A stretch of 64,000 bases of DNA from Sedimentisphaerales bacterium (lineage in GTDB: Bacteria > Planctomycetota > Phycisphaerae > Sedimentisphaerales > SM23-30). The stretch spans positions 2,138,201 through 2,202,200 of the forward strand of contig OY763926.1 of NCBI GenBank assembly GCA_963667715.1. The letters run 5' to 3'. Each line of letters opens with the position of its first letter. Positions within the stretch are counted from its first letter, which is position 1. Under the pieces are notes generated by a model that was not told the DNA's origin, ran no database searches, and was given only the letters and a program-made list of their open reading frames with translations. Of the stretch, positions 1-46,380 are shown one piece after another. The translations under genes were made by a program, and so were the position numbers.

Positions 1-44
1 ATATGTACGACTTTGGCCAGTTGGCCGAAAATTGGCTGAAGTAA
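1..44 (+). CDS. 3' end of an upstream CDS (partial, continues left of the window) with a dockerin-like tail
   Basis: nt 3-41 read MYDFGQLAENWLK, followed by TAA at 42-44. The next gene ends the same way (...LETFTEYWLK*). A further member of the tandem family therefore probably lies upstream. Confidence 0.5.
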   Translation, partial: MYDFGQLAENWLK

Positions 45-91
45 ATATAATTGAGTCTACTAATATTAAATATACATATTCTGGAGTGTTT

Positions 92-3000
92 ATGAGTAAA
101 TTGTGCTATATACTTTACATTATGATTTTGTGCTTGGTACCATTCTCGTCTCAAGTTAGAGCTTATTCTGGAGGTGATGGTACTCCAGATAGTCCTTACG
201 AGATCAGTACCGCTGAAGAACTAATATTTTTAGGTAGTGATATCGAAAACTATTCATGCTCCTTTATCCTTACAGACGATCTGGATCTAAGCTCTTACAG
301 TTTTACTGAATCTGTTATCGCGACCACAGCTGATTTTACTGGGTGTTTCGATGGTAATAACCATATTATCAGTAACCTTCATATCAATGCACCTGGAGTA
401 AGTAATGTGGGACTATTTTCTAAATTGAATGGTGCAGAGATAAAGAATGTAATAATTACTTTAGCTGATATTAGTGCTGAGGAATATGTAGGTATACTTG
501 CAGGCCGTAGTGAAAGTTCTTTGATTACTTATTGTATAGTGAATGGTAAAGTAAGTGGAAGGTCTCTGAATACTGGAGGTATTTATGGTTGGGGTGTTTA
601 TGATGTGCTAAGCAAATGTTCTGCTGATGTGAATGCTTCTGGTTTCGGCAATGTTGGCGGTATCGCTGGTTTTTTTGCAAGAGGGACATTGACATACTCA
701 TCTGCTACAGGTATTGTTACTGGAGGTATGGATTCTGGAGGATTTAGTGCTGGAATTGTTAGTAACTTATATCAAGCGTCAATTTCAAATTGTTATGCAT
801 GTTGCAAAATCTCTGGTAAGGATAAAGCTGGTGGCATTTGTGCTTATGGTAAAGATAGTACTATAGACAGTTGTTATTCAGCAAGTAGTATTGTTGCAGT
901 GACTAATCCGGGGAGCATTCTTGCTGCAGACTATGGTTGCCCTGTCAGCAATTCATTTTATAATACTGAGCTTTGTAGTAGCGACGTACATCATTCTACA
1001 GGGTCTACAGGTCTTACTTCTGCCGAAATGTGTGATAAATCATTTTTTATAAATCAGGGCTGGGATTTTGTAGGAGAGACAGATAATGGCACTGTAGATA
1101 ACTGGAATATTGAACAAAATCTATACCCTACTTTTAGTTGGCAGGGGTATAGCCCCGTCAATGTGCCAAATCTATTGGGATTAACTTACAGTCAGGCATT
1201 AATTGAGCTGAATAATGTTGGTTTAACACCAGGTCTGATCCAATATTCATACAACATGGGACCCAAAAACGTTGTCTATGGTCAATCGATTCCAGCAGGT
1301 AGTGAATCATATAATATGTATCTTGTTAGTCTAAATATTTCTTTAGGTGATCGTTATTCTGGTGGTTATGGAACTTCTGCATCACCGTATTTAATATCTA
1401 AGGTTGATGATTTGTTAGCACTAGGTGAAAATACAAATGATTATAATAAATATTTTCGGTTGGTTAATGATATTGATATGGAGCCAGCTGGGGTACTGAC
1501 ACGTGCCGTAATAGCCCATAACCCTAGGGTCAGTTGGAGTTTTAGTGGTACTGAATTTACCGGTGTCTTTGATGGTAATGGTAAAACTATTAGTAATCTC
1601 ACTATTGAGAATGAGGATGGGTACTATATCGGTTTATTTGGAAGAATTGGCGAATCGTCAATAGTTAGCAATCTGAAATTAACTAATTGTAGTATAATTG
1701 GTAATACAACAACTGGTTTCATAGCTGCTTCTAGTTCATACGCAACTCTGGAAAATTGTTTGGTTACTGGAAGTATGAAATCTGTTACTCACTCTGGTGG
1801 AATATCTGGTTCTAGTTATCGTTCTGTATTTAATAATTGCACTTTAAATTGTTCTATTGATGCCACTGGCGATAAAGTGGGTGGTATTCTAGGAAGTGGT
1901 AATTCTTGTACTATAAATAATTGTGCTGCAAATGTTTCCATTACTTCCGGTATTCCAGTATATTCATCAAGTGCAACTGGGATTGGCAAATATGCTGGTG
2001 GTATTGCTGGCTATCTTGAAGACACAGATCTTAATGGCTGTTATTCGTCAGGTATTGTAAACGCTCGAACAATAGTTGGAGGTTTAGTAGCTCTGAATTC
2101 AGGTTCAATTATAAATTGCTATTCTACTTGTGATGTATTATGTGAAAATTCCTCATATGCCGGTGGTATAATTGCTCATAATTATGGAAATGTTGTAAAT
2201 TGCATTTTTGTTGGATCTGTTATGTCAGTAGGTGAATTTACGGGCGCACTTGTTGGTGAAAATTCTGCTAATGTCAATAATTCATATTTTTATAAATATT
2301 CAGGACCTAATAACCAAATAGGAACTGCGATTGATGACTTACAAATATTTGATAAAAAAACATATGTTGGTTTTGATTTTGTAGGTGATTCAAATGATGG
2401 TATCGACGATATATGGAATATTAGTAATGGTAATATTCCATATTTAACGTGGCAAAATGATGAAGTTAGATTTGTGTCTCCTCTTACTAATGTAGAAACC
2501 ACTCTTCTTGGCAGTGGTAGTCATAATGACCCATTTATTATTGCTAGTAAAAGTGATCTTTTAGAGTTTAGTAGCAATCCTGGATTAAGAATTGGATACT
2601 ATTCATTAGAAAGTGATATCAATCTTTCTGGGTATACATTTTCTCAGGCTGTTGTAACAGGGATTTTTAATGGTACTTTTTTAGGGAATAATCATATAAT
2701 CCAAAATGTCGAAATTGATGCTAGCGAAAATAGTTCTGGATTCTTTTCTATTTTAACAGGAAATGTTAGCCAGCTGAATCTAATTGGTGTTTCTATAAAC
2801 GCTAGAGAGTTAGATTATGCAGGTGGCCTCTCAGGGATAATCGCATATTCAGATATTGAAGACTGTTATGTCGTGTCGAATATTATTGCAAATGATTATG
2901 TGGGGGGGATGGCAGGGTCTTCTTTATCGCTTATGGCACATAATAATATATGTCAAGCCGACATAAATGCTGAGGATTATAGTGGTGGATTGTTTGGTGA

Positions 3001-4936
3001 GTGTATTGGGGGTGTCGTAAGTAGTTGCTTGACAATAGATGGAACTATTAATGGTGGAGGTTATTCTGGCGGTCTGATTGGGAAAACTGTTAATGTGAGT
3101 ATAGATAAATGTTACACTGATAACATCGTACATTCCAGATATTATGTGGGTGGGTTAGTTGGGGCTCTTAGTACTTGTTCTGTTGTTTCATCTGTTTCAC
3201 ATGGAGCAATATATACTTCGAGTTGGGATGTTGGTGGATTAATAGGGCATTCTTATGATAGTACTATTGATAATTGCTATTCAACCTCTTTGCTAGATGG
3301 CTCATATGATGCATCTGGTTTTGTTGGTGTAAATAATAGTACTGTTATTTCAAATTGCTATTCAGATGGAGTAGTTTCTGATTCATATTATTCTATATCA
3401 GGATTTACGTATTACGGCAATAATATATTCAATTCTTTTTGGGATATTGACTCAAGCGGTCAGTCTGAAGGTATACTGTCTGGGAGTACCAGTGAGTTAG
3501 TAGGGTTGTCAACTGAAGATATGCATAACCCGGATATATTTATCGATGCTGGATGGGACTTCGTTGGTGAAACTGATAATGGCACTGATGATATATGGGA
3601 TTCCATTCCTGGGCAAAGTCCTCATTTGACTTGCGAGACAATGGATATGCCAGATTTTACGGGTATGTCTTTGGCACAGGTCCAGCTATATATATCTAAA
3701 CATTATTTCTCGTTTGGTGCTGTATCGTATGCCTTTAGCGATGTCCCCAAGGGAAAAGTCTGTTTTCAGTCTATCGAAAGTGGGGCTAAGGTATATGCCG
3801 GACAGACGGTAGATGTCTCTCTCTCTCTTGGCATAGCATTTTCAGGTGGTAATGGTTCTATTAACGATCCGTATCAGATTTCAACGGCCGCTGATCTGAT
3901 AATGTTTAGTGATATACAATCATTTTTAGCGTCTGATGCGTATTATGTACTTACAAACAATATTGATATGAGTGGTCATCCTTTTACAAATTCTTTGATT
4001 TCGCCTAATGCCAGCCCTGATACTGATTTTACAGGTATTAAGTTTGAAGGTAACTTCAATGGTAAAGGTTACACTATAAATGATCTTACTATAAATAATA
4101 CTGAACATTACTATACCGGTTTGTTTGGTTATATTAGCTCAAATGCAGCTATTTCAAATTTGAAATTAGTAAATGCTAATATTTCTGGTGATAATTATAC
4201 CGGTGCTCTTTCCGGCTATTCTGATGGTGCTGATGTCTCGGCTTGCTATGTAGAGGGTGCTGTTTCTGGTAATATTTACGTTGGTGGACTGATTGGGCGG
4301 GTTGATCGTACTTCGCTCAGCAATTCTGTGTCAGAAGGAAGTATTAATGGTAAATATTATTCCGGTGGTATAGCGGGCTATAGCTATCAGTCTATAATAC
4401 ATGACTCATATTCTTTATCAGACATCATAAGTGATGATATTGCTGGTGGACTTATAGGAAGAAGTAACTATAGTAATTTGGAAAAATGCTATGCAAGGGG
4501 AAATGTAGAATGTGACGGCTCGATTTATGGTGGACTAATAGGCTATCGTGATGCTGGAACTGTTATTGTTTGTATGTGGGATTATCAGGCCAGTGGTTTT
4601 GGAGATGAAGGTATGGAACACCTAGGTGCTACAGCATACTCAACCGCCCAAATGCAAGCCATCACCACCTACCTTACCGCCGGCTGGGATTTCGTCTCTG
4701 AAACTGCCAACGGTTCATCCGATCTGTGGCGTATGTCTTCAATGTCCGGCTATCCAATTCTCTCATGGCAAAAGGATATACCTTTCGACACCACCGGCAG
4801 CTACGGCATAGACATCCTGGATTTCCAGACCCTTGCCCAGCAGTGGCTCCAGCCAGACCAAAGCTTAGATATAGACCAGTCCGGCACAGTCGATCTCGCC
4901 GACCTGGAGACCTTCACCGAATATTGGCTAAAGTAA
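92..4936 (+). CDS. Giant secreted GLUG-repeat protein with four modules and a C-terminal dockerin-like module
   Basis: ORF 32..4936. I place the start at ATG 92 because MSKLCYILYIMILCLVPFSSQVRA looks like a signal peptide. There are four modules of about 330-400 aa, starting near nt 167, 1351, 2503 and 3838. Each opens with GxG...(D/S)PYxIS and FTGxFDGNxHxISNL, continues with many GG(I/L)xG GLUG-type repeats, and closes with GWDFVGETDNGTxDxW...YPxLxW. PASTA-like linkers sit between modules. The tail is DIDQSGTVDLADLETFTEYWLK*. Confidence 0.85.
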   Translation: MSKLCYILYIMILCLVPFSSQVRAYSGGDGTPDSPYEISTAEELIFLGSDIENYSCSFILTDDLDLSSYSFTESVIATTADFTGCFDGNNHIISNLHINAPGVSNVGLFSKLNGAEIKNVIITLADISAEEYVGILAGRSESSLITYCIVNGKVSGRSLNTGGIYGWGVYDVLSKCSADVNASGFGNVGGIAGFFARGTLTYSSATGIVTGGMDSGGFSAGIVSNLYQASISNCYACCKISGKDKAGGICAYGKDSTIDSCYSASSIVAVTNPGSILAADYGCPVSNSFYNTELCSSDVHHSTGSTGLTSAEMCDKSFFINQGWDFVGETDNGTVDNWNIEQNLYPTFSWQGYSPVNVPNLLGLTYSQALIELNNVGLTPGLIQYSYNMGPKNVVYGQSIPAGSESYNMYLVSLNISLGDRYSGGYGTSASPYLISKVDDLLALGENTNDYNKYFRLVNDIDMEPAGVLTRAVIAHNPRVSWSFSGTEFTGVFDGNGKTISNLTIENEDGYYIGLFGRIGESSIVSNLKLTNCSIIGNTTTGFIAASSSYATLENCLVTGSMKSVTHSGGISGSSYRSVFNNCTLNCSIDATGDKVGGILGSGNSCTINNCAANVSITSGIPVYSSSATGIGKYAGGIAGYLEDTDLNGCYSSGIVNARTIVGGLVALNSGSIINCYSTCDVLCENSSYAGGIIAHNYGNVVNCIFVGSVMSVGEFTGALVGENSANVNNSYFYKYSGPNNQIGTAIDDLQIFDKKTYVGFDFVGDSNDGIDDIWNISNGNIPYLTWQNDEVRFVSPLTNVETTLLGSGSHNDPFIIASKSDLLEFSSNPGLRIGYYSLESDINLSGYTFSQAVVTGIFNGTFLGNNHIIQNVEIDASENSSGFFSILTGNVSQLNLIGVSINARELDYAGGLSGIIAYSDIEDCYVVSNIIANDYVGGMAGSSLSLMAHNNICQADINAEDYSGGLFGECIGGVVSSCLTIDGTINGGGYSGGLIGKTVNVSIDKCYTDNIVHSRYYVGGLVGALSTCSVVSSVSHGAIYTSSWDVGGLIGHSYDSTIDNCYSTSLLDGSYDASGFVGVNNSTVISNCYSDGVVSDSYYSISGFTYYGNNIFNSFWDIDSSGQSEGILSGSTSELVGLSTEDMHNPDIFIDAGWDFVGETDNGTDDIWDSIPGQSPHLTCETMDMPDFTGMSLAQVQLYISKHYFSFGAVSYAFSDVPKGKVCFQSIESGAKVYAGQTVDVSLSLGIAFSGGNGSINDPYQISTAADLIMFSDIQSFLASDAYYVLTNNIDMSGHPFTNSLISPNASPDTDFTGIKFEGNFNGKGYTINDLTINNTEHYYTGLFGYISSNAAISNLKLVNANISGDNYTGALSGYSDGADVSACYVEGAVSGNIYVGGLIGRVDRTSLSNSVSEGSINGKYYSGGIAGYSYQSIIHDSYSLSDIISDDIAGGLIGRSNYSNLEKCYARGNVECDGSIYGGLIGYRDAGTVIVCMWDYQASGFGDEGMEHLGATAYSTAQMQAITTYLTAGWDFVSETANGSSDLWRMSSMSGYPILSWQKDIPFDTTGSYGIDILDFQTLAQQWLQPDQSLDIDQSGTVDLADLETFTEYWLK

Positions 4937-5003
4937 ATATATTTGAACCACGAGCATGGTTATTTGAGTGATCATGTTTTTATTACAGTTAAATGGAGTG
5001 TTA

Positions 5004-8000
5004 ATGAGAAGTTTTAATGTACTTTATATTGTATTGTCTATACTTATTGCCTCATCGGCTTTTGCCGCCAACGGCGTTTTGCCCGGCTCCGGCACAGAAA
5101 ATGACCCATATCTCATCGAAGATAGGGCTGATTTCTTTTATTACTGCTGGTGTTCTGAATATCAGCTAGCCGATGTTTACACCAAACAGCTGTGTGATAT
5201 AGACCTGGCAGATTCCCCTTTTAATAATTGCTGTTTCCAGGGAAATTATAGCTCAGCCACGTCTACTGTGCCAAATGCATATCAATTTTCTGGTATTTAC
5301 GATGGTAACAACAAGACGATCTCCGGCTTAACTGTTAACGCTGGTTATTTTTATGGAAGTGCTATTGGTGGGTTAGTTGGACATTTAACATCTACAGGTG
5401 TGCTAAAAAATATTATTATTAAAGATGCATACGTACAGTCAACATACTACGAACGTTATAACGCATTATTATGTGGTAACAACAACGGTACTATCGTTAA
5501 TTGTCATGTCACTGGACAGGTTGCAGCTAACGACACATTATCTGTAGGTCTTTTGGCTGGTATAAATCAAGATGGTGGTATCATACGCCACTGTAGTGCT
5601 ATGGGCAGGGTATTGCATAACTCTGGCTGGGATTCTGGTGGTATTTGCGCTAATAATCTAAGCATTATTTCTGATTCTTATGCTGATGTAGATATTGTTG
5701 CTGTTAATACAAGGTATGCCGGCAGCTTCTGTGGCTATACACACAATTTCAATAATCTGAATAATATCAGTATAACAAACTGTTATGCAAAAGGTTCAGT
5801 TACCGCCGATGAAGTTGTTGGCGGTTTCTGCGGTAAAAACTCATGGATGCTTTCTAACTGCTACAGTTCAGCCCAGGTTCACTCATTATCCGGTCAGGAG
5901 GCTGGTTTCTGCTATGAATATGACAGTGATTTAACCTCCTGTGTGTCAAGTTGTGTATGGGATAATGACCTTGCTTCATCTCCTGATTATTCTTATGATC
6001 CACTACTATTGTATTTAACTATGGATGATATTGTTAACGAAACAGCCGAAAACCATGGCACTCTCGATTATAGTTCTGCCGTAAATGGTACTCCTGCTAT
6101 CGTTGCAGGTATATCAGGAAACTGTTTAGAGTTTGACGGTGCAAGCGATTACCTGGAATTCGATGATTACAATGGAATATACTACAATATGCCCAGAACT
6201 ATTTCGACCTGGATTAAAACTTCAGCTACAAACAGGCAGGTTATAACCGGTTGGGGCAAGCGTGTTAGCGGCAAGATTTGGCAGCTCAATATTGAACCAG
6301 ACGGCCATCTTAGACAACTTGTCGGTGGCGGGTATAAACAGTCTTCTCTAGTTGTAAATGACGGCCAATGGCATCATGTTGCCGTAGTTTTACCTTTTGG
6401 CGATCCTGCGACTGTTGCTGATATTAAAATATATATTGACGGCGTATGTGATACAAATTCCATAGCTTCCTCTGAGCAGGAAATATCTACTGGGATATTA
6501 GGGAAAATGACTATAGGTATGAACTACATCGATGACACTGCCAATAATTTCTTTAATGGCTGTATTGACGAATTTCGTCTTTATAATGGTGCATTGTCTG
6601 ATACCGATATCGCCGGGCTTGCCGTTTTGCTTGAGCCCAATGTTCAGGTTGTTGTTAGTGGAAAATCAGCTCTCGAAATGCAGGATATAAACACCTACCT
6701 TAGTGCCGGCTGGGACATTACAGCTTCTGATAGTGGTTCCAATAGCTCAACCTGGGTCATTTCTGACTCCTCTTTCCCGGAATTCTCATGGAGCAAGCCT
6801 AGAAACGATACTGTATTTTTTGACAGAAAGAACCTGAAAGGTATTACTTGTGACGAAGCTGTTGCCTTGCTTGCGGATTCTGGTATTACTGCAAATATTA
6901 TCTATGATTGCAGTCGTATTATTCCTGCTGACACTGTCATTACTTCCGAAGCCGATTCTGTTATATTAAGAAATGCTACAGAGCTAAATGTTATCGTTAG
7001 CTCTGGCCCATATGACTGGTCAACCAATCCTGGTACTGGAACCGCCATTGACCCGTACCAGATTACTACTCCCGGTATGCTCTTTGGTCTGCCTATTGAC
7101 AAATTTTATCACTTCAAGTTAATGAATGATATCGATCTGGTCAGTTACTATTTTTCTAACGGTTCAGTTATTCGTTCAGATTATACTAGTGGAAACACTT
7201 TTAGAGGTGTTTTTGATGGTAATGGTCACGTAATAAGAAATGCTAATATTTATGGCTTTTGTAGCTATAATGTTTATAGTCTCAATATTCCTGGCTATTA
7301 TCATGTTGATGGTAAATGTGCAGGACTCTTTAGTGTTATCTGGGACGAAAATTCTGTAGTCGAAAATCTTGGCCTTGAAAATATTACTATTTCAGGTGAT
7401 GCTGATCTTACTGGTGGGTTTGTTGGTGTATGTGATTCAGCACGTATACAAAACTGTTACGTTAATGGTGGTAAAATTTTTGCAAGCGCCTCAATAGCTA
7501 CCAATATACTAGGTGGCTTTGCTGGTTATGGGGTAAATATTAAATCTTGTTATGCATCATTAAGTCTCGAATGTCGAATTACTAGTTATAATGATACTTT
7601 GTACTGCGGTGGTTTTGTTGGAATAGGATCAAAAATTGCTAATTGCTATAGTAATAGTAAGCTTTATGTTGGTTCTTCAATGAAGTATTACCCCGGTGGA
7701 TTTACAGGTATTGTTGCTTCAGATTATTCTATAACTAATTGCTACTCATCTTCTAAATTTATTTTTGCTGGTGCTGATGATGTTCTAAATAATGGCTTTA
7801 TTGGTACAAGTGGTGGGCAATATGTACACAGTGTCAATAGCTGTTTCTGGGATTGTGAGATTAGTAATATTGGTCAGGCGGATGTTACAAATCGCGGCGC
7901 TACAGCCAAAACAACTGCTCAAATGCACGATGTTAACACCTATCTTAATGCCGGCTGGGATTTTACGGATGAATCGTCCAATGGTACTAATGATTACTGG

Positions 8001-10142
8001 TACCTAGATCCAGAATCAACGTACCCTAAGCTAGTATGGCAAAGTGTAAAACCCGCTGTGTATGCAAGCTCTCTTATAGGTAATACTAAACAATATGTAA
8101 TCGATACCCTTACTGATATTGGTGTTGCAGCAACTGTAAAATACGATTATGACCCAGATTACCCCGTTGGCACTGTATTCTTAATAGACGGACCTGACTA
8201 CTTACAACAAGGTACCCAAGCAAAGGTACTCGTTAGTCTGGGGAGTTACAACTGGGCTGACAACCCTGGTGATGGTACACAAGCTAGACCATGGCAGTTA
8301 TCTACTGTTGGTATGTTTAGAGCCATGAAATATCCTCAGTATTCAGGTTACTCAATAGTGATGAATGATATTGATTTTTCTGGATATACTTTTGAGCGCC
8401 ATGTTATAGGCATGGTAGATGGCGATCTGACTGACTTTACAGGAAACTTTGACGGTAACCATAAGTTGCTTTCAAATATCAATATTGTTTCAAATAATTA
8501 TCGTACGCTCGGTTTCTTTGGTATAAATACCGGTAATATCTCAAACTGTGTCATAGATAATATTCAGCTTCAGCTTGATTGTAATGTTCTAAATACGATC
8601 TTTGCTGGTTCGTTTGTGTATATGAATAGCGGTACAGTATCATCGTGCTCTGTTATTTCTTGTAGCGTAAATACTTATGGTTTTACTGACTACGGGTTAA
8701 ATGTTAGTGTAGGTGGTTTTTGTTCCAATAACTCAGGAAGCATCTCGAAGTGTTCTGTTGGTATTGATATAAATTTATCTTGTCAGGTATACCGTGATTG
8801 TGTTGCTGGATTTGTTGCGCAAAACTATAGTGGTATTATAACCAAGTCATATTCTGATATAGATATTGAAGTCTATTCTAATTCAAGCAACAGTTTGATC
8901 ATATCTGGTTTCGTTGGTGACTATTATGGCTCGACTATCTATGATTGTTATGCACAGGGTAGCATTACGACGGATAATGCTGACACCGTGTATTTATTTG
9001 GAGCATACCGTTACGTTGAAAGATCTTATGCAGCAGTATCTGTAGATATTACCGGCAGTGCAGAAGTTACCATTGCCTATAATGATAATGAATCTCAATC
9101 TTTCTGGGATAACCAGTTATGCCCAGTATCCGATTATCCTTTCGGGTATCAAACAATAGCTCTTTCTACTGCCCAGCTGTGCGATATCAACACTTATTCT
9201 AATACCGACTGGGATTTCAGCTCATCTGACGGTACCCCGCCTGTATGGCAAATTTTAGGCAATAATTATCCAACTTTAGTTTGGCAGGGTACACCAGATA
9301 CCGATAATAGTGGCTGTGTTGACCTGCTCGATATGGCCAAAATTGCCCAAAACTGGCTAAGTACAGACCCGCTGAAATCGTCATTGGACTTCGATCAGTC
9401 AGGACAGATAGACCTTGTTGACCTCGAGATTTTTAGCGAACTATGGCTTGAGAAATTTTTAATATCAAATTTAGTTGCTTATTGGCCTTTAGATAATGCA
9501 GACGATGGAATTGTAAACGATAGTTCCGATTATAGCCACAACGGCAGCATTTTCGGTGCTCCTATCATAACAACAGGTGTAAATGATAGCTGTTTTGATT
9601 TCGATGGTAGTAATGACTATATCTATGTTGAAAGCTTTGGCGGTATTGCCGGCGCAAGCCCCAGGACTATTGCTGCTTATATAAAGGCAGAATCAGACCT
9701 GGAAAATCAGGAAAATAACTTGCACGCTATTGTCAGCTGGGGTGATTTCGATCGATATGAAAAATGGTTTGTCACGCTTGATTCCGCTACCGGCCAGCTA
9801 GCACTCGGTATAAGCGGAACCAGACTAATGGGAGGCCCCGATCTGGAGGATGGGCAATGGCATCATATTGCCGTGGTCCTTCCTGAAAATGCTGATAATA
9901 TCAATGAAGTTCTGCTCTATGTCGACGGCCAACTTGTTACTTCAAATGCCGGTTCGCTTAATGCAGTTATAAACACCGACTACACCGAAGTAATTATCGG
10001 TGCAACGAATAGAGCATCACAAGGCGAAGCACGTGATATGGCACAATTCTTTGACGGCTCTATAGACGATCTATGTATCTACAATAAAGCACTCTCACCT
10101 GAACAAATCACAGAATTGTGTCAAATGAATATTGTCCAATAA
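5004..10142 (+). CDS. Giant secreted GLUG-repeat protein with two LamG (Laminin_G_3-type) domains and an internal dockerin-like module
   Basis: ORF 4968..10142. ATG 5004 gives MRSFNVLYIVLSILIASSAFA, which looks like a signal peptide. It has three GLUG modules (FRGVFDGNGHVIRN, FTGNFDGNHKLLSN, GGFxG repeats, GWDF...YPxLVWQ). LamG 1 lies near nt 6020-6620 (CLEFDGASDYLEF...GQWHHVAVV...IDEFRLYNGALSDTDI). A dockerin-like stretch follows (DTDNSGCVDLLDMAKIAQNWL...DFDQSGQIDLVDLEIFSELWL). A terminal LamG 2 lies near nt 9470-10140 (CFDFDGSNDYIYV...GQWHHIAVV...IDDLCIYNKALSPEQI). Confidence 0.85.
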   Translation: MRSFNVLYIVLSILIASSAFAANGVLPGSGTENDPYLIEDRADFFYYCWCSEYQLADVYTKQLCDIDLADSPFNNCCFQGNYSSATSTVPNAYQFSGIYDGNNKTISGLTVNAGYFYGSAIGGLVGHLTSTGVLKNIIIKDAYVQSTYYERYNALLCGNNNGTIVNCHVTGQVAANDTLSVGLLAGINQDGGIIRHCSAMGRVLHNSGWDSGGICANNLSIISDSYADVDIVAVNTRYAGSFCGYTHNFNNLNNISITNCYAKGSVTADEVVGGFCGKNSWMLSNCYSSAQVHSLSGQEAGFCYEYDSDLTSCVSSCVWDNDLASSPDYSYDPLLLYLTMDDIVNETAENHGTLDYSSAVNGTPAIVAGISGNCLEFDGASDYLEFDDYNGIYYNMPRTISTWIKTSATNRQVITGWGKRVSGKIWQLNIEPDGHLRQLVGGGYKQSSLVVNDGQWHHVAVVLPFGDPATVADIKIYIDGVCDTNSIASSEQEISTGILGKMTIGMNYIDDTANNFFNGCIDEFRLYNGALSDTDIAGLAVLLEPNVQVVVSGKSALEMQDINTYLSAGWDITASDSGSNSSTWVISDSSFPEFSWSKPRNDTVFFDRKNLKGITCDEAVALLADSGITANIIYDCSRIIPADTVITSEADSVILRNATELNVIVSSGPYDWSTNPGTGTAIDPYQITTPGMLFGLPIDKFYHFKLMNDIDLVSYYFSNGSVIRSDYTSGNTFRGVFDGNGHVIRNANIYGFCSYNVYSLNIPGYYHVDGKCAGLFSVIWDENSVVENLGLENITISGDADLTGGFVGVCDSARIQNCYVNGGKIFASASIATNILGGFAGYGVNIKSCYASLSLECRITSYNDTLYCGGFVGIGSKIANCYSNSKLYVGSSMKYYPGGFTGIVASDYSITNCYSSSKFIFAGADDVLNNGFIGTSGGQYVHSVNSCFWDCEISNIGQADVTNRGATAKTTAQMHDVNTYLNAGWDFTDESSNGTNDYWYLDPESTYPKLVWQSVKPAVYASSLIGNTKQYVIDTLTDIGVAATVKYDYDPDYPVGTVFLIDGPDYLQQGTQAKVLVSLGSYNWADNPGDGTQARPWQLSTVGMFRAMKYPQYSGYSIVMNDIDFSGYTFERHVIGMVDGDLTDFTGNFDGNHKLLSNINIVSNNYRTLGFFGINTGNISNCVIDNIQLQLDCNVLNTIFAGSFVYMNSGTVSSCSVISCSVNTYGFTDYGLNVSVGGFCSNNSGSISKCSVGIDINLSCQVYRDCVAGFVAQNYSGIITKSYSDIDIEVYSNSSNSLIISGFVGDYYGSTIYDCYAQGSITTDNADTVYLFGAYRYVERSYAAVSVDITGSAEVTIAYNDNESQSFWDNQLCPVSDYPFGYQTIALSTAQLCDINTYSNTDWDFSSSDGTPPVWQILGNNYPTLVWQGTPDTDNSGCVDLLDMAKIAQNWLSTDPLKSSLDFDQSGQIDLVDLEIFSELWLEKFLISNLVAYWPLDNADDGIVNDSSDYSHNGSIFGAPIITTGVNDSCFDFDGSNDYIYVESFGGIAGASPRTIAAYIKAESDLENQENNLHAIVSWGDFDRYEKWFVTLDSATGQLALGISGTRLMGGPDLEDGQWHHIAVVLPENADNINEVLLYVDGQLVTSNAGSLNAVINTDYTEVIIGATNRASQGEARDMAQFFDGSIDDLCIYNKALSPEQITELCQMNIVQ

Positions 10143-10181
10143 GTATTCATAAATATTATTGATATTATCAAGCTTACTTTA

Positions 10182-10221
10182 CAGGCAAATGTTACCTATC
10201 TCAACATTTGCCTGTTTTTTA
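10182..10221 (+). terminator. Rho-independent terminator after the second giant gene
   Basis: Perfect 12-bp stem caggcaaatgtt (10182-10193) / aacatttgcctg (10203-10214) with a 9-nt loop, followed by tttttt (10215-10220). Confidence 0.7.
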
Positions 10222-10624
10222 TTTGTATCATTCTCTTCGCCAATTACATATGTGCATTGAGCTAGAAATAAGTAGTTAATATTGAGGGCATGTAATTCTG
10301 TTAATTACTACATTTCAAGTCCGGCTAAATGGTAAGTGTAGCTGATTAAGGATGTTATAAAATACTATAGGCATTTATCTCTATCAATATTGAATTAGCA
10401 GGTATCTGCCATAATAATTGGAACTCCAAAATACTTGATTTTTTATCTGATATTTGATATTTTATCGAAAAGAGGAATCAAAAGGGGTATTTGGACAAAC
10501 ACATATGTTCTGCTGGATATCAAACGTTGATACTTTTATGTGTTTTAGTTGCAATAGTCACATGAGATTATAGGCAAAGGACGTTTTGCTTATATTACAG
10601 CCGTTACAGGGGGAGTCTGCCGTG

Positions 10625-13600
10625 ATGAAATGGGTTTTATTCGCTGGTATATTATTAATATTATCTTCATCTTTATTGGCATTGGATGGTAATGGGCTAT
10701 CAGATAATCCTTATTTGATCCAGACTCAGGATGATTTCGATGAATTTGCTGACGTGCAAAATGCAGATGTCTTTTGGGCTAGTGGTGTTTATATAAGATT
10801 GGATACAGATCTTGATCTGACAGGTAAGGAATACGACCGGGCAGTGATAGCTCCTGATATCGATAACACTCTCTGGGAATATGACGGCATATCTTTCTCA
10901 GCTTTTTTTGATGGAAACGATCATACAATTAGTAATCTTTCCATCGACTCAATAAATGCAGATAACGATTATATTGCTCTGTTCGGTCAGATTAGTGGCG
11001 AAAACTCTGAGATAAAAGATCTTACGCTTATTAATTGCTCAGTTAAAGGTGGAAATAGTTCCCAGTATACCGCCGGAATAGTAGCTTTTAATGACTCTGG
11101 AACTGTTCATAATTGTTCGGTATATGGTTCAATTAATGGTAGGGAAGCAGGAGGTATTTGTGGTCAAAACTCACATGGTGAAATTACAGACTGTTTTGCA
11201 AATGTAACTATCTATAGTAGGGCTACCGCAGGTGGCATATGCAGTACAAATTACTTTGGTAGTATTCTGGACTGTCATGCTGAAGGAACCGTTGAAGGTC
11301 GTTATGACGCTAATTACATCAGCGGACTTTGCGGCCTTAATACAAGTAGTACCATCCAAAGATGTTCTTCCTCGGTGAGAGTAATTGGTGGTGATGAGTA
11401 TGCTGGCGGATTATGCGGCTTTAATTATTCTGACAGCTGTATTAGTGAATGTTATGCTACTGGTAATGTTACCGGCGATAAATATATTGGTGGATTTGTC
11501 GGTAGAAATACCGGCGCCGTTATTAACGACTCATATTGTACTGGCAATGTTTTGATTAGGAGCTACGGACAGTTCTCTGGCGGTTTTTGCGGCGAAAACT
11601 CTGGAACCGTACAAAACTGTTATTCTATTGGCAAAATTGACAATTCCAACTTTCCAAGATACTATGGCGGTTTCTGCGGCTCTACCGATCGAAGTGTAAT
11701 TCAAAACTGTTACTGGAGCGAGGATACTGAGTATCTGCCAGGACTGGGATCTCTGATATACAGTGCTGGTGGTTACCGGTTATCCAGTAATCAGATGAAG
11801 TCCGAGTCAAACTACCTTGGCTGGCACAATGGACTTTGGAAGATTGAAGAAGGCATTGATTATCCGCGTCTTGCTTGGGAAAATAAACCTGGTACAGTAA
11901 TTGATCATGTTGAAAATAAAACATATTACGGCAATGGAACTGATCAGCCTTATGAGCTTGCAAATGCAGACGATATTGTATGTATGTCAAAGCGGCCGCA
12001 GGACTGGGATAAAAAGTTTATCCTGGTAGCAAATATCGATATGTCCAGTGTTTTGGACTATTCTCCTGTTTCCTGCTTTACCGGAAGTCTCGATGGCCAA
12101 AACTTCACTATTAGTAACTTCACCATAGATGCATCTTCAGACGGTAACAACCATTGTCTGGGTTTTCTTGGCGTATTACAATATGGTGGTGCCGTTAAAA
12201 ATGTTAAGGTTGAAAATGTTAGTATTACCTGCGGTACTTTTGGGCGGTTTCTGGGTGGACTCTGCGGCCTGAATAATTCCGAGGAAATATATAACTGTCA
12301 TGTCACCGCCAGTTTTAATACAGGTGATTCCACCAGAAGCGTAGGCGGACTTTGCGGCTATAATAACTGTGGCCCCATCAGTTATTCAAGTGCAAACACG
12401 ACTTTTGCGGTTCCAATGGAGGCTCAATATTATGGCGGGCTTTGCGGAAATAATGCTGGACTAGGTATTGTTGAGCGATGCAAGGCTCAAATCAACTGCA
12501 CGCAAAATTGGGGAACTCAGGCTGTCGGTGGCTTGTGCGGAGCAAATTTCGGGACCAGCAAGATTTCTGAATCATTCTCTACCGGTACAATTGCAAATGA
12601 CCGAAGTGGTAATAAAGTCGGCGGACTATGTGGTTTGAACAATGGTGAAATCAGTAATTGCTACAGCCTCGTAGCTATCGATAACTTTTCTGCTTCTCCT
12701 ATAAGTGGTGGCTTGTGTGGCTGGCTCGAAGATGGTACTATCAGCGATTGTTTTTCAGCTGGTGCTATGACAGGGGAGCAATTGCAGCCAAATAGCTTTT
12801 GCGGTTTAATCCGTGACGCTGATATCTCAGCATCTTTCTGGGATAATGAACTATCACCACAATCTGCTTATTACGTTGGTGTCGAAGGTAAAACAACACT
12901 TGAGATGTACGCAAAGAGCACCTTTACTTATGCCGGGTGGGACTTTACCAGCGACGACGGCAATCCTGCACTTTGGCAGGCAAGATATAAGGACTATCCT
13001 CATTTCATATGGGAAGGGCTTTCTACTCAATATGTCACAGTACCAGACTTAGAGCGTATGCTCAAAGCTGATGCAATTACTGCCATTGTTGATGCCGGCC
13101 TTACTGTTGGCTCGATTACAATTGCAGAAAACGCAGATGTGCCGCTAAACAGTGTGATTAGCCAATCGTATCCGGCAGGTACTTCATTAGAAGTATGGAC
13201 GGCAATTAACTTAATTGTTACACGTGAGCCTGAGATGGTTACTGTCCCTGATGTTATTGGCACTACTCAGTCAGACGCTGAAAATGCCATTATAGCGGCT
13301 GGTTTTGCCGTCGGGACGGTCACAACATCATATAATGCTTCAGTCCCGGCTGGTACTGCAATGGCCCAGTCGCCAGCTGGTGGAACAACATATCTTGAAG
13401 GTTCAGATATTGCCCTTACGATCTCGCTTGGTTCTGCAATTTCAGGATCAGGTACAGAGTCTGAACCGTTTATGATTGATTCAATTGATGCTTATCTTGA
13501 ATTTTCAGACCTTGACAACTCTGCTATATATTGGGCTCCATATGTTCATACGCATTTGACTTCTGACCTTGACCTGGCAGATGTTTCCGTCAGTCGGATT

Positions 13601-15346
13601 GGGATTTCTGATAGCATGTGTTACCAGGGCTTCTTTAATGGCAACTCTCATACAATTTCAAATTTGACTATAAATGTACCAGAAGATTATTATGTTGGCA
13701 TGTTCGGTAGAATCAATGCTTCAGCTAAGATAACAAATCTCCTTCTCCAAAGCCCAGTGGTTACCGGTGAGTATTACGTCGGCGCCCTTTGCGGTTATAA
13801 CGATGGCGGCAGTATCACTCTTTGTGGTGTAGATTCAGCCTATATAGTTGGCGATGAGTGTGTGGGTGGTCTTATTGGAGAAAGTGCCTGGCATACGAAC
13901 ACTGACGATACCTTTATAGTTCCCAAAATTGATCGGTGCTATTCAACGGGACAGGTTAATGGCCAAAGTAAGATTGGCGGACTTGTTGGGCAAAGCAGTG
14001 TTTCGCAGATGCTAAGGTCTTTTTCAACAGCTAATGTAAATGGCAACCTGAATATTGGTGGTTTGATTGGTTTGCATTATGGTCATGTCCCGGTAGCAAA
14101 CTGTTTTTCGCAGGGGGATGTCTGGGGACAGGGTAATGTTGGAGGTATGGTTGGTGTTAGTTATGCTGTCGATACTGATTGTGGATTTAGCAATTGCTAT
14201 TCCAGTGGCCAGGTGAATGGGACGAACTCTACCGGTGGACTGATTGGTAAAAACTATAGTGGTGTCAATTTCCATAGTTGCTACTGGGATACCGATAGTA
14301 GTGGTCTTACATTCAGTGACGGCGGCGTAGGGAAGCCAACTCAGCAAATGCAAGATCAGGCAATATATCTTAATTGGGATTTTGATACCCCTGTGTGGAT
14401 GATTAACGGCCAAAACTACCCACGATTGATCTGGCATAGTCCTGACATTGATGATAATGGAATTGTAGATATTTCCGATTTTGCAATCCTTTCAGACAAC
14501 TGGCAGTTAGCCGTTAGTTCTTTGAACGGGGCAGATCTAAACGGAGATTCTAGTGTGAGTATCGATGATCTCATACTAATAGTTCAAAACTGGCTTTCTG
14601 TGGATGTGATAGCAAATCATGTTTCTGCTATAGAAAGTGCTACAGGGATAATGTATGGCAAACCAGATGATAGTAATGACACTGTCTATGTTTTTGAATT
14701 ATCAGTATATACAGATTCTAATGTTGAAAAAATAGAATTCCTTACCCCTGCTGGTTATTTATATGAAATCACTAATGAGCTGTATACCGAAACCTGTTCG
14801 CCTCATGGTTGCATTGAGACAGAATATGTATTCGATGAGGACGAAGCCGTAAATGTAGGTAACCAGCAATATGAATGGGTGTATGAAGCCTGTTTTAGCA
14901 ATATCGAATCACTAGATAATTATGGCGATGGCTGGTACGAATTCACCTTCTATCTTCCTAACGGCCGAATTGAGCAAAGCAGGTTGTTCTACGGCAATAC
15001 ATCCACTGGAGAAATTATTCCACAGCCAACTGAGGAGCCAGTCTTCACCTCTCCAACTCATGGCCAAAGTATATCGAATCCAATTACATTCTCATGGCAA
15101 GAATGCACCGATAGTAATGTATCATTTATTTATTTCGATGCCGAAAATGAAGACAACGATGACGAGATCGAATACGGCCAACTCGATAAATCTGTAACAA
15201 GTTTGGATGGGATAGATTTGAGTGCTGGTAGCTGGACGGCATATTTAAATCTTGTGGCTATAGACTCATCAATAAATATAGATGATATTGACGTCTTTAT
15301 AGCTAAGTTTACGGTTACCGAATTAGATTTCATTGTCGAACCATAA
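10625..15346 (+). CDS. Giant secreted GLUG-repeat protein with two PASTA domains, a dockerin-like module and a unique C-terminal domain
   Basis: ORF 10586..15346. ATG 10625 gives MKWVLFAGILLILSSSLLA, which looks like a signal peptide. Modules carry FSAFFDGNDHTISNL, FTGSLDGQNFTISNF and YQGFFNGNSHTISNL, with very regular GGxCG/GGLxG repeats. Two PASTA-type units are present: VTVPDLERMLKADAITAIVDAGLTVGSI... and VTVPDVIGTTQSDAENAIIAAGFAVGTV.... The dockerin-like stretch is DIDDNGIVDISDFAILSDNW...DLNGDSSVSIDDLILIVQNWL. Confidence 0.85.
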   Translation: MKWVLFAGILLILSSSLLALDGNGLSDNPYLIQTQDDFDEFADVQNADVFWASGVYIRLDTDLDLTGKEYDRAVIAPDIDNTLWEYDGISFSAFFDGNDHTISNLSIDSINADNDYIALFGQISGENSEIKDLTLINCSVKGGNSSQYTAGIVAFNDSGTVHNCSVYGSINGREAGGICGQNSHGEITDCFANVTIYSRATAGGICSTNYFGSILDCHAEGTVEGRYDANYISGLCGLNTSSTIQRCSSSVRVIGGDEYAGGLCGFNYSDSCISECYATGNVTGDKYIGGFVGRNTGAVINDSYCTGNVLIRSYGQFSGGFCGENSGTVQNCYSIGKIDNSNFPRYYGGFCGSTDRSVIQNCYWSEDTEYLPGLGSLIYSAGGYRLSSNQMKSESNYLGWHNGLWKIEEGIDYPRLAWENKPGTVIDHVENKTYYGNGTDQPYELANADDIVCMSKRPQDWDKKFILVANIDMSSVLDYSPVSCFTGSLDGQNFTISNFTIDASSDGNNHCLGFLGVLQYGGAVKNVKVENVSITCGTFGRFLGGLCGLNNSEEIYNCHVTASFNTGDSTRSVGGLCGYNNCGPISYSSANTTFAVPMEAQYYGGLCGNNAGLGIVERCKAQINCTQNWGTQAVGGLCGANFGTSKISESFSTGTIANDRSGNKVGGLCGLNNGEISNCYSLVAIDNFSASPISGGLCGWLEDGTISDCFSAGAMTGEQLQPNSFCGLIRDADISASFWDNELSPQSAYYVGVEGKTTLEMYAKSTFTYAGWDFTSDDGNPALWQARYKDYPHFIWEGLSTQYVTVPDLERMLKADAITAIVDAGLTVGSITIAENADVPLNSVISQSYPAGTSLEVWTAINLIVTREPEMVTVPDVIGTTQSDAENAIIAAGFAVGTVTTSYNASVPAGTAMAQSPAGGTTYLEGSDIALTISLGSAISGSGTESEPFMIDSIDAYLEFSDLDNSAIYWAPYVHTHLTSDLDLADVSVSRIGISDSMCYQGFFNGNSHTISNLTINVPEDYYVGMFGRINASAKITNLLLQSPVVTGEYYVGALCGYNDGGSITLCGVDSAYIVGDECVGGLIGESAWHTNTDDTFIVPKIDRCYSTGQVNGQSKIGGLVGQSSVSQMLRSFSTANVNGNLNIGGLIGLHYGHVPVANCFSQGDVWGQGNVGGMVGVSYAVDTDCGFSNCYSSGQVNGTNSTGGLIGKNYSGVNFHSCYWDTDSSGLTFSDGGVGKPTQQMQDQAIYLNWDFDTPVWMINGQNYPRLIWHSPDIDDNGIVDISDFAILSDNWQLAVSSLNGADLNGDSSVSIDDLILIVQNWLSVDVIANHVSAIESATGIMYGKPDDSNDTVYVFELSVYTDSNVEKIEFLTPAGYLYEITNELYTETCSPHGCIETEYVFDEDEAVNVGNQQYEWVYEACFSNIESLDNYGDGWYEFTFYLPNGRIEQSRLFYGNTSTGEIIPQPTEEPVFTSPTHGQSISNPITFSWQECTDSNVSFIYFDAENEDNDDEIEYGQLDKSVTSLDGIDLSAGSWTAYLNLVAIDSSINIDDIDVFIAKFTVTELDFIVEP

Positions 15347-15543
15347 AATGCCTTGTCTACCCATAAAAACGATGCATTCAGTCCCTCCGTATATGAAGCT
15401 TTGCATTAGTGCTTACATTTTATCACATTGGGGTTGCGGCTTGACCGTCCTAAGTTCTTTATGTATAATTATCTACTTGTATATTTGCGGCATTATTCGT
15501 AATGCCGTTCTAGTATTTGATGTGGTTTAGGTTAGAGTAGAAA

Positions 15544-19172: not shown

Positions 19173-19676
19173 ATGTCTAAAAAAGACGAATTTCTGGTAC
19201 AATTTGTAAAATCCAATAAGCAGCTGTTTGGGTATATCCTCTCTTTGGTGCCTTCCCATTCTGATGCCGAGGATATTCTTCAGGAAACCACCTGCATGCT
19301 GTGGGACAAATTCGAAGAATTTGAACCTGGCACCAATTTTCTGGCATGGTCTAAAAGTATTGCGAAAAATAAGGCCTTTGAACATTACCGAAAGAAAAAA
19401 AAGTCTCTGCACATAGATATTGATGTTCTTGAAAATATTTATGAAAAGCATAATGCTGGCGATATGGAAGAACATATGGCTGCTCTGAGGGGGTGTCTGG
19501 GCAAGCTGGAAGAAAACGATCTTAAGCTTATCCAGTTAAAGTTCCAGAATGGTATCTCTATTAAAGAGATTGCCCAGAACACTGATCGGTCAGTTCATAC
19601 CTTGTATAAAAGGATGGCTTGTTTGTATACTTTGCTCCAGTCATGTGTTAGAAAAACGCTATTGAGCTGGAGTTAA
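19173..19676 (+). CDS. ECF-type RNA polymerase sigma factor (sigma-70 family, regions 2 and 4)
   Basis: 167 aa. Region 2-like: DAEDILQETTCMLWDKFEEFEPGTNFLAWSKSIAKNKAFEHYRKKK. Region 4 HTH-like: ISIKEIAQNTDRSVHTLYKRM. An anti-sigma-like gene follows directly. Confidence 0.85.
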   Translation: MSKKDEFLVQFVKSNKQLFGYILSLVPSHSDAEDILQETTCMLWDKFEEFEPGTNFLAWSKSIAKNKAFEHYRKKKKSLHIDIDVLENIYEKHNAGDMEEHMAALRGCLGKLEENDLKLIQLKFQNGISIKEIAQNTDRSVHTLYKRMACLYTLLQSCVRKTLLSWS

Positions 19677-19690
19677 AATGACCTTGGTAG

Positions 19691-21406: not shown

Positions 21407-21648
21407 TTTGTATGTTTGAATTATTATAAATATTGCGTGGTCTCTTTTTATATAACCTCATTCTATCTGGTTGTGTTATTGAGACTGATCTGTATTATCA
21501 AATTATTATTTAATGAATATTAGTATATTCTTGCGGAGAATGTACGTCTATAGGTCTGGCATTTGTACAGGAGGAAGTTTTTAAGTTGGTGTATTAATTG
21601 TTTATATTGTTCGCAAACGTTTACATTTTATTTTGAAAGGTTAAAAGA

Positions 21649-23670: not shown

Positions 23671-23709
23671 TTGATATTTCATTTTCTTATATGATATTTG
23701 ATCATAGTG

Positions 23710-23746
23710 GCCCGTCTGTTCTCAGTAGCAGGCGGGCTGTTTTTTA
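23710..23746 (+). terminator. Rho-independent terminator
   Basis: Stem gcccgtctg (23710-23718) / caggcgggc (23729-23737) with one G-U pair, followed by tg and a T-run. Confidence 0.65.
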
Positions 23747-23888
23747 TGGTATATACCTGCAGTAGTTACCTAAAGTGCCATGTCGCCCTGGTTGTAACTC
23801 CGGCCTATACAAGGAGATATCTCTCTATTGACTAAAACTTGCAATAACTGTTTGTTTTTGCCCCTAATCATATGTTACAATTAAACTT

Positions 23889-26323: not shown

Positions 26324-26917
26324 CTACGTTAGACGCTTAAAGAAGAATGGATTGAATGACCGCTCAGTACTAACTGTGCTCATCGGTCCATGTGCCGGGT
26401 ATATTCGAGTATTGTCATCAAGGGTAAAAACCTGTTCTATTACAGACTTTATCTGACGTCTGGTGTTATTAATTCCGTGCGTACCACCAACACTTCCGGC
26501 AAACAACGCATCGCCAGTAAATACATTCCCATCACAATAGTATGATATACCATTTGCCGTATGGCCCGGTGTCGACAGACACCTTATCTCATGTTCGCCC
26601 AATGCGATTCTGTAATCATGTCCTACCGTAATGTCAGCATCAGGGTATTCGCTTTCTCCGGCATACGAGGTCAGCTCAAATGCCTCCTTAAACTGCCCAA
26701 AGCCCTCAATATGGTCCCAATGCCCATGTGTGATCAACAGATGCTTCAGGCTAAGATTATGGCTTTCTATAAACTCTGGTATCTCAGGCCGAAATCCGCC
26801 CGGATCAATAAAAGCCGCCTCGCGACTGGCCTTATCAAATATTAGGTAGCCATTGATCGGGTAGCCGCCAATAGTAAATCCTTTGACAGCCAGTTGATTA
26901 TTATTTGAATTGATCAT
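26324..26917 (-). CDS. MBL-fold metallo-hydrolase (glyoxalase II-like)
   Basis: 197 aa with the HxHxDH motif in LLITHGHWDHIEG and a later TPGHT. Its start codon overlaps the stop of the upstream gene (TAATG at 26915-26919). Confidence 0.85.
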   Translation of the reverse strand: MINSNNNQLAVKGFTIGGYPINGYLIFDKASREAAFIDPGGFRPEIPEFIESHNLSLKHLLITHGHWDHIEGFGQFKEAFELTSYAGESEYPDADITVGHDYRIALGEHEIRCLSTPGHTANGISYYCDGNVFTGDALFAGSVGGTHGINNTRRQIKSVIEQVFTLDDNTRIYPAHGPMSTVSTERSFNPFFFKRLT

Positions 26918-27549: not shown

Positions 27550-27551
27550 GA

Positions 27552-41023: not shown

Positions 41024-41024
41024 T

Positions 41025-44333: not shown

Positions 44334-44351
44334 AATTTTGTGAGAGTTTTT

Positions 44352-46325: not shown

Positions 46326-46343
46326 TTTTTTGTTATTACCGTA

Positions 46344-46380
46344 CCCCCATCCCCATCCCCTTGGGATCGATTACCTCCCC
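46344..46380 (-). repeat. C-tract cluster (G-tracts on the minus strand) directly after the operon
   Basis: The plus strand has ccccc at 46344-46348, cccc at 46351-46354, cccc at 46357-46360 and cccc at 46377-46380, including the tandem ccccat ccccat. This is conspicuous in an otherwise AT-rich island. Confidence 0.5.

Follow-up and report, generated by a model that had tools for sequence, protein, structure and literature searches.

In the M26 IgA1 proteases, the NTD2 beta-helix is a non-catalytic gate, which repositions on substrate binding and admits the substrate (PMC9637739). Here, we describe an array of three large genes (gene 1, gene 2 and gene 3) that are built from modules related to this domain. 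The array was found in a stretch of 64,000 nucleotides from Sedimentisphaerales bacterium (contig OY763926.1, positions 2,138,201 to 2,202,200), which is called the window in the following. The array modules share the Pfam Glug repeat, the fold and sequence similarity with NTD2, as present in the IgA1 proteases of S. pneumoniae and G. haemolysans, and with 3N6Z, the structure of a stand-alone domain from Bacteroides ovatus. In contrast to the M26 proteases and 3N6Z, however, one array protein contains three to four complete capped modules and neither a G5 domain nor a protease domain nor an HExxH motif is present. The hosts differ as well, since the array belongs to a planctomycete, whereas the known proteins stem from mucosal Gram-positive bacteria or Bacteroides.

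The array proteins furthermore carry dockerin segments, which show the same two EF-hand-like loops and helices as the type I dockerins of cellulosomes (2Y3N_B, 2VN6_B, 1DAQ, 5NRK_B). Here, the cargo is a putative rod of several beta-helices instead of a glycoside hydrolase, and a conserved WL ends the helices. Unlike the cellulosomal type I dockerins, those of genes 2 and 3 are followed by further domains. For Planctomycetes a non-cellulosomal cohesin-dockerin assembly, the "planctosome", has been proposed (PMC6461901), and a Coh2-Doc1-Coh1 scaffoldin-like protein together with 13 dockerin fusion proteins has been described for Limihaloglobus sulfuriphilus, a member of the Sedimentisphaerales (PMC11557425). 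Annotated relatives from Sedimentisphaerales, Phycisphaerae and Pontiella agree with the array proteins in module type, in their PASTA linkers and C-terminal dockerins and in LamG or immunoglobulin (Ig)-like extensions; they are mostly single genes, whereas the genes described here are arranged head-to-tail.

Size, signal peptide, repetitive beta modules and calcium-binding elements are also features of giant adhesins such as SiiE, the serine-rich repeat proteins, the autotransporters and the two-partner secretion (TPS) proteins, and the Ig-like tail of gene 3 resembles tandem Ig/FN3 stalks including that of SiiE, although this match is generic. In contrast to these adhesins, the array proteins are without an autotransporter barrel, a TPS domain, an LPXTG motif and a type I secretion signal, and they consist of discrete capped solenoids instead of one continuous helix. 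An autotransporter or TPS adhesin was rejected, since no hit to a translocator barrel or a TPS domain was obtained with Pfam and NCBIfam and the C-termini are dockerin, LamG and Ig-like domains.

On balance, we lean toward the view that the array genes belong to a large, lineage-expanded family of anaerobic Planctomycetota of the Phycisphaerae/Sedimentisphaerales type. The proteins of this family would be exported via Sec and built like beads on a string, and they would serve as non-enzymatic rods for binding or as scaffolds, attached via a dockerin.

Modules, linkers and tails of the array genes

The three genes lie on the same (plus) strand at 92-15346 of the window, as taken from the list of open reading frames (ORFs). 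Their ATG starts at 92, 5004 and 10625 are each preceded by GGAG 5-9 nt upstream, and sequences identical to all three products are already on record in a public protein collection as called but unnamed genes. Gene 1 (92-4936, 1614 aa) encodes a signal peptide and four modules (161-1147, 1352-2458, 2498-3637 and 3836-4774), of which the first and second as well as the third and fourth are separated by a PASTA domain and the second and third by a short linker, and it ends with a C-terminal dockerin (about 4787-4933). Gene 2 (5004-10142, 1712 aa) encodes a signal peptide, module 1 with an inserted LamG domain (5073-6779), a PASTA-like linker, module 2 (7020-8045), a divergent PASTA-like linker, module 3 (8256-9290), a dockerin (9297-9431) and a C-terminal LamG domain (9603-10109), so that the cassette of dockerin and LamG spans 9297-10109. 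In gene 3 (10625-15346, 1573 aa), the signal peptide is followed by module 1 (10676-11884), a short linker, module 2 (11918-13018), two PASTA domains (about 13025-13438), module 3 (13433-14440), a dockerin (14444-14581) and an extension of two Ig/FN3-like beta-sandwiches (14609-15343).

At the N-terminus of all three proteins a signal peptide was read from the sequence by eye, MSKLCYILYIMILCLVPFSSQVRA followed by Y in gene 1, MRSFNVLYIVLSILIASSAFA followed by A in gene 2 and MKWVLFAGILLILSSSLLA followed by L in gene 3. These peptides end with VRA, AFA and LLA, read as Sec-type signals and contain no lipobox, which makes export of all three proteins plausible. Upstream of gene 1, the window opens with the 3' end of another plus-strand gene (1-44), which consists of 13 codons (3-41, MYDFGQLAENWLK) and a stop codon (42-44). 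Since these last residues, read directly, resemble the end of gene 1 (DLETFTEYWLK before the stop), the fragment reads as a dockerin-type C-terminus, and the upstream gene is probably a fourth member of the family; 13 residues suffice for a dockerin-type tail, but are too few for calling a GLUG paralog.

The number of modules (four, three and three) was obtained by a motif scan and a module hidden Markov model (HMM). The modules are 313-403 aa long with the exception of module 1 of gene 2, which reaches 569 aa owing to the LamG insert. The Pfam Glug family (PF07581) scores 62.2, 73.0 and 128.7 bits across the three genes at a cutoff of 20.5. Each module starts with an N-cap motif (GxGxxxxPYxI, then FxGxFDGNxHxIxNL), continues with five to eight GLUG coils of 28-30 residues recognizable by a coil HMM, which are spaced by 27-31 residues and have the consensus DYVGGLCGNNYSGSISNCYSTGDINGRG, and closes with a C-cap motif (GWDF...W...YPxLxW).

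For module 2 of gene 3, AlphaFold2 was run with an alignment of 31 module sequences. The resulting model (predicted local distance difference test, pLDDT, 91.8; predicted template modeling score, pTM, 0.92) is a beta-solenoid with coils of about 30 residues, a helical N-cap and a C-cap. A Foldseek search of the PDB with this model gave six matches at E values of about 1e-3 or better, and all of them are GLUG beta-helices. The best match is B. ovatus BACOVA_03286 (3N6Z; E 1e-8, TM-score 0.53/0.57), followed by the M26 IgA1 proteases 6XJA, 6XJB, 7JGJ, 7UVK and 7UVL (E 6e-5 to 1e-3); residues 178-368 of 6XJA/6XJB are also matched on sequence level (E 3e-4). This indicates that the modules are predicted beta-solenoids like the solved GLUG domains. 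A second tier of matches comprises pectin methylesterase, AlgE4, PL6 lyases, tailspikes and autotransporter passengers, but with E values of 0.04-0.5 and TM-scores of 0.2-0.3 these are generic fold resemblances.

The residues that are invariant or nearly invariant across the 31 modules are Gly, Pro, Phe, Trp, Cys, Tyr, Leu and Met as well as one Asp of the WDF cap, and the alignment contains no conserved acidic or basic coil residues. Furthermore, the HExxH motif is absent from all three proteins and no enzyme family of Pfam or NCBIfam matches them. Because the significant fold matches are GLUG domains only, NTD2 is non-catalytic and both conserved polar residues and HExxH are missing, the modules are read as structural or binding scaffolds rather than enzymes.

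The junctions between the modules differ. PASTA domains (PF03793) score above the gathering cutoff in gene 1 (65.5 bits for two domains, at about 1148-1351 with 34 bits and at about 3638-3835 with 44 bits) and in gene 3 (85.7 bits for the tandem pair), and the pair of gene 3 matches PASTA structures of PknB (E 1e-7). The linkers of gene 2 are divergent and PASTA-like: one is marginal, as it stays below the cutoff of 23.2 with 21.2 bits, and the second was recognized solely by a profile made from the five remaining domains, which brings the array to six PASTA or PASTA-like domains altogether. Two junctions, between modules 2 and 3 of gene 1 and between modules 1 and 2 of gene 3, are short linkers of about 15-20 residues without PASTA. 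Laminin_G_3 (PF13385), a family of concanavalin A-like lectins, is found in gene 2 only, in two copies with 136.5 bits; the copy inserted into the C-terminal part of module 1 (6135-6614, 74.4 bits alone) follows the last coils and precedes the GWD cap. This N-terminal module with its LamG insert is collinear over all 569 residues with the relatives P0207, P0208, P0213 and P0243 at 32-39% identity.

In the "dockerin-like" segments, a helix ending in WL (WL and WQ in gene 3) comes after each of two DxDxxGxVDxxD loops. Single sequences score 17.0, 19.9 and 23.0 bits for Dockerin_1 (PF00404) in genes 1, 2 and 3 at a cutoff of 22.9. A profile of 19 segments, three from the window and sixteen from relatives, however, retrieved solved type I dockerins first, namely 2Y3N_B (E 6.8e-9), then 2VN6_B, 2VN5_B, 2MTE, 1DAQ and 5NRK_B. 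These matches have E values of 7e-9 to 1e-5 and span both calcium-binding repeats, whereas calmodulin matches span one loop only. Because the solved dockerins are matched across both repeats, the segments are, at the level of sequence, dockerin homologs. In many relatives a conserved CGxC is present between the two dockerin repeats, which the three window proteins do not have; neither CGxC nor the helix-ending Trp-Leu is shown by the solved dockerins aligned to the family profile.

The dockerin forms the very end of the protein in gene 1 and in the upstream fragment only, while genes 2 and 3 add about 220-250 residues. The dockerin and LamG cassette of gene 2 recurs with 41-51% identity in P0060, P0236, P0128, P0100, P0256, P0207 and others. 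The C-terminal extension of gene 3 comprises 245 residues, belongs to no Pfam family and was modeled as two beta-sandwiches at pLDDT > 90; its structural matches (CD45, SiiE, EpoR; TM-scores 0.2-0.3) are those of generic tandem Ig/FN3 domains. A local phmmer search found this two-sandwich domain in 11 retrieved relatives besides gene 3. It is placed about 235-245 residues past the dockerin in P0002-P0006, P0010, P0017 (two copies) and P0029, and in P0023 and P0047 it appears, according to the alignment, directly after the module cap. The C-termini thus fall into three recurrent subtypes, as judged by domain content: dockerin only, dockerin with LamG and dockerin with two Ig-like domains.

Much of this architecture had been outlined in a first-pass annotation of the window. 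The statement that the array occupies about a quarter of the window agrees with 15346 of 64000 bases (24%), and four, three and three modules with caps in the given motif order, beta-helix-like repeats, PASTA-like linkers and dockerin-like anchors are all borne out by the motif scan and module HMM, the AlphaFold2 model with its GLUG matches, Pfam (clearly for genes 1 and 3, with gene 2 divergent) and the dockerin profile (E 7e-9). Other statements have to be narrowed. Instead of 10-15 GG(L/I/F)xG turns per module the coil HMM gives five to eight, and the proposed LamG inserts among the paralogs are real but confined to gene 2. A shared dockerin tail and differing C-terminal extensions are both present, although the dockerin is truly terminal in gene 1 only. 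At least four paralogs had been counted (about 1615, 1712 and 1573 aa and the tail of a fourth); here, three genes stand, with gene 1 at 1614 aa, and the fourth amounts to 13 codons that show a dockerin-type tail only.

Distribution of the family and age of the paralogs

A search with gene 3 scored 8000 candidates, of which 1237 proteins reached E <= 1e-10, with members of the same family down to E 1e-280. Module 1 of gene 2 retrieved 18,679, 5,817 and 535 cluster representatives at E <= 1e-3, 1e-10 and 1e-30, respectively, from a library of 1.84 billion sequences, and these counts include LamG-only matches. The relatives are named "GLUG motif-containing protein", "PASTA domain-containing protein" or hypothetical protein. 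Those named belong mostly to Sedimentisphaerales and Phycisphaerae, but also to metagenome-assembled genomes (MAGs) of Planctomycetota, to Sedimentisphaera salicampi and to Pontiella sulfatireligans. A few relatives from Bacteroidia carry a tail of the type IX secretion system (T9SS, PF18962), and fn3, PKD, Big_1, BACON and Peptidase_C10 are found as further extracellular accessory domains among the relatives.

Among species-representative genomes, a scan with an alignment of five orthologs detected 48 loci, while gene 3 alone as query found no close relative in the genome contigs. Nearly all 48 loci carry labels of the Phycisphaerae type (Sedimentisphaerales, Anaerohalosphaeraceae, Phycisphaerales), and many are third-party annotation (TPA) MAGs labeled "uncultured Pirellulales"; one locus, in Acidobacteriota, is a match of the PASTA region only. 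By this distribution, the host of the array is most likely a planctomycete resembling Sedimentisphaerales. Taken together with three metagenome loci (51 in total), the family consists mostly of single genes with one to five modules in unrelated neighborhoods. Two separate GLUG genes are present at about five of the 51 loci and a run of three was found at none of them, which is a weak negative because many of the contigs are short. No relevant literature on GLUG proteins in Planctomycetes or Phycisphaerae, or on GLUG as a beta-helix, was found. The family is already annotated and widespread, and as far as the searchable literature shows it is without experimental characterization. This agrees with the first-pass annotation, which had called GLUG proteins poorly characterized; more than 1200 relatives exist, and almost none has been studied. 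The array genes are ordinary additions to this known but unstudied family and would not surprise a specialist.

Within the array, the modules are distant from each other. The pairwise identity is 22-35%, within as well as between genes. Among the direct DNA repeats of 1-15400, the longest measure 35-63 nt, are 60-81% identical and lie on the conserved cap motifs; repeats above 63 nt or 81% identity were not found in this region. For nine of the ten modules the best BLAST match is located in the protein of another organism and not in a window gene. Gene 3 served as the query for the comparison set, which favors its own modules but not those of genes 1 and 2, and for the latter a better match outside the window genes was found in six of seven cases. 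Modules 1 and 2 of gene 3 match best the modules at the same position of P0002 (51 and 49% identity), and the full-length relatives of gene 3, P0002 (44%) and P0003 (35%), have the same module order and C-terminal extension. Close relatives are lacking for gene 1: the best matches are 27-33% identical, and neither genes 2 and 3 nor P0060 are among the best 120 matches of gene 1. P0060 is a fifth paralog, which is encoded elsewhere on the same chromosome and is not the upstream gene; it has 2051 aa, five modules and a dockerin and LamG tail 51% identical to that of gene 2. Both end cassettes of gene 2 are also found in P0207 from another organism, a likely relative of gene 2, which with 1300 aa instead of 1712 aa is about 400 aa shorter. 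This suggests that whole internal modules have been lost or gained over long times.

All this indicates that the array consists of anciently diverged paralogs lying side by side and not of recently duplicated or homogenized genes. Recent duplication, gene conversion and fast shuffling are contradicted by the low module identity, the lack of long DNA repeats, the best matches outside the window and the conserved architectures, and recent duplication or gene conversion was ruled out on the first three of these grounds. The first-pass annotation had suggested a rapidly diversifying array of putative adhesins or surface-layer proteins with shuffled accessory domains. Instead, the module comparison revealed anciently diverged modules without homogenization, and the cassettes of accessory domains recur elsewhere.

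Proposed binding rods and rival explanations

Each bead is a self-contained beta-solenoid with an N-cap, five to eight GLUG coils and a C-cap, and the beads joined by PASTA or short linkers would form a long segmented rod. If the array proteins are non-enzymatic binding rods, the dockerin would most likely attach this rod in a calcium-dependent manner to a cohesin-like partner or to another component of the envelope. The faces of the solenoids, the LamG domains and the Ig-like domains would offer binding sites for ligands, which are probably polysaccharides or the surfaces of particles or cells. The window also encodes pectin-degrading genes (GH43, RGL11), a context that is compatible with such binding rods, but no proof.

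Several points weigh against this reading. In a planctomycete, a protein of 170 kDa would have to pass the outer membrane, and the PASTA domains could signal peptidoglycan binding inside the envelope. Catalytic sites specific to single modules would also be compatible with the lack of conserved polar residues. As to the dockerin, its part of the AlphaFold2 model has a low pLDDT of 50-63, with the two helices at the right places, and the Pfam scores of single sequences are at or below the cutoff (17-23 vs. 22.9 bits). The internal position of the dockerin in genes 2 and 3 would be unusual for an anchor at the end of a protein, and no cohesin is present among the ORFs of the 64-kb window. A more far-reaching proposal, to which we would give only a small chance, is that the GLUG-PASTA-dockerin proteins are cargo or fibers of a calcium-dependent, non-cellulosomal cohesin-dockerin display general to anaerobic Phycisphaerae. 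As strings of rigid beta-helix beads, they would then capture polysaccharide particles or other cells in a polyvalent manner, and the three tail types would set different positions or partners.

The modules might instead be enzymes of the pectate-lyase fold (lyase, hydrolase, esterase or epimerase), and the proteins multi-catalytic depolymerases docked like cellulosomal enzymes. This fold class is indeed common to PL6, GH28, CE8, AlgE4 and phage tailspikes, which include matches of the second Foldseek tier, dockerins classically carry enzymes and the host encodes pectin-degrading enzymes. The Foldseek matches are however not significant (E 0.04-0.5, TM-scores 0.2-0.3), Pfam and NCBIfam contain no matching enzyme family, the coils of the 31 modules are without conserved acidic or basic residues and the significant relatives, 3N6Z and NTD2 of the IgA1 proteases, are non-catalytic, which makes the enzyme explanation improbable. 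Membership in a carbohydrate-active enzyme family (PL, GH28, CE8) was rejected, as neither a significant structure match nor a family hit was obtained. Even less can be said for a contingency array of rapidly diversifying adhesins, in which modules and accessory domains would be shuffled or converted among tandem genes. Such an array would fit adjacent genes on the same strand that differ in module number and accessory domains, a range of one to five modules across the family and the different lengths of P0207 and gene 2, yet in these two both end cassettes are kept. The module identity of 22-35%, repeats of at most 63 nt and 81%, outside best matches for nine of ten modules, the absence of genes 2 and 3 from the best 120 matches of gene 1, the positional orthology of gene 3 modules 1 and 2 to those of P0002 and the C-terminal cassettes kept across organisms all argue against it, and we regard it as quite improbable.

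Muropeptide binding is established for the PASTA domains of PknB and PBP2x, and planctomycetes have peptidoglycan. With six PASTA or PASTA-like domains, the array proteins might therefore be structural proteins inside the envelope, that is rods tethered to peptidoglycan in the periplasm or cell wall. In the array, however, PASTA occurs as single or double spacers, two junctions do without it and many family members have none. In addition, the Bacteroidia relatives bear T9SS export tails, and domains such as dockerin, LamG and the Ig-like ones usually belong to extracellular proteins; this explanation is as doubtful as that of docked enzymes. By far the least probable explanation, which we hardly consider credible, takes the proteins for degenerate M26-type, IgA1-protease-like peptidases or their accessory subunits. 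It draws on a Peptidase_M26_N match in gene 1 (49.9 bits), on weak NCBIfam scores for ZmpA/ZmpD (15-22 bits vs. a cutoff of 3000) and on the structural matches to IgA1 proteases. The M26 match is partial and confined to the beta-helix (profile positions 156-250 of 250), and neither HExxH nor an M26 catalytic domain is present in the three proteins; membership in the M26 peptidases is excluded by this missing catalytic domain.

Transcription, neighboring genes and meaning for the family

The intergenic gaps along the array are 47, 67, 482 and 197 nt. Directly 3' of gene 2, a terminator-like hairpin is located on the plus strand (10181-10224), with a 13-bp stem and a U-run (-17.2 kcal/mol, z = -4.7, none of 200 shuffles as stable). 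A weaker one (15487-15508, plus strand, -12.2 kcal/mol, z = -3.0) lies between gene 3 and uvrB, and the spacer of 482 nt upstream of gene 3 is AT-rich. Based on the gaps and the hairpin after gene 2, one transcript may cover genes 1 and 2 together with the upstream gene, and gene 3 is probably transcribed alone. A scan for sigma-70 promoters was uninformative (74 sites vs. 56 expected). The GC content at third codon positions (GC3) climbs along the array from 0.255 in gene 1 to 0.321 in gene 2 and 0.349 in gene 3, and that of the uvrB, proA-like, GH43 and RluD-like genes (0.40-0.46) is above all three. The third positions of gene 1 are as AT-rich as the defense island further downstream. Separate histories, foreign origin or low expression could account for the low GC3 of the array, and no conclusion is based on it here.

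Just downstream of uvrB and the proA-like gene, a row at 19173-26318 encodes an ECF (extracytoplasmic function) sigma factor, a FecR-type anti-sigma factor with a C-terminal NPCBM domain, a protein with LamG and Ig I-set domains (673 aa) and an S8 subtilase (809 aa), which may be a regulated secreted-protein module. On the minus strand at 26324-29765 follow an MBL-fold protein, a pentapeptide-repeat protein and a fusion protein of 737 aa with matches to PqqD, M50 peptidase and an HlyD-type barrel-sandwich. This unusual set suggests a role in the processing or export of peptides.

An island of low GC content (0.32-0.35) extends from 36674 to 51234 and looks like a mobile defense island beside a tRNA gene. 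It contains a serine recombinase (36674-37273, minus strand), an HKD/PLD and SNF2 helicase protein (37784-41023; PADLOC DrmD 121 bits, candidate "HKD+Snf2"), a methyltransferase resembling type IIG restriction-modification enzymes (41025-44333, 264 bits), a HATPase_c_3 protein (44340-46325), an ORF of 577 aa of unknown nature and an IS256/Mutator transposase (49382-50614, minus strand), after which tRNA-Pro(GGG) is located (51158-51234, minus strand). Close to the end of the window (61114-63954, minus strand), a glycoside hydrolase of family 43 (GH43) adjoins a family 11 rhamnogalacturonan lyase (RGL11_C, 669 bits). Since these two lie side by side, a pectin-degrading lifestyle of the host is indicated.

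GLUG beta-helix proteins are numerous and almost wholly uncharacterized, and the sole mechanistic knowledge comes from the gating domain of the IgA1 proteases. An array of paralogs this old is no model for the rapid diversification of adhesins. The proteins are among the largest exported ones predicted for anaerobic polysaccharide-degrading planctomycetes, and since they carry genuine dockerin homologs, they are good candidates for work on the cell surface and for learning how such planctomycetes build this surface and hold their substrates.

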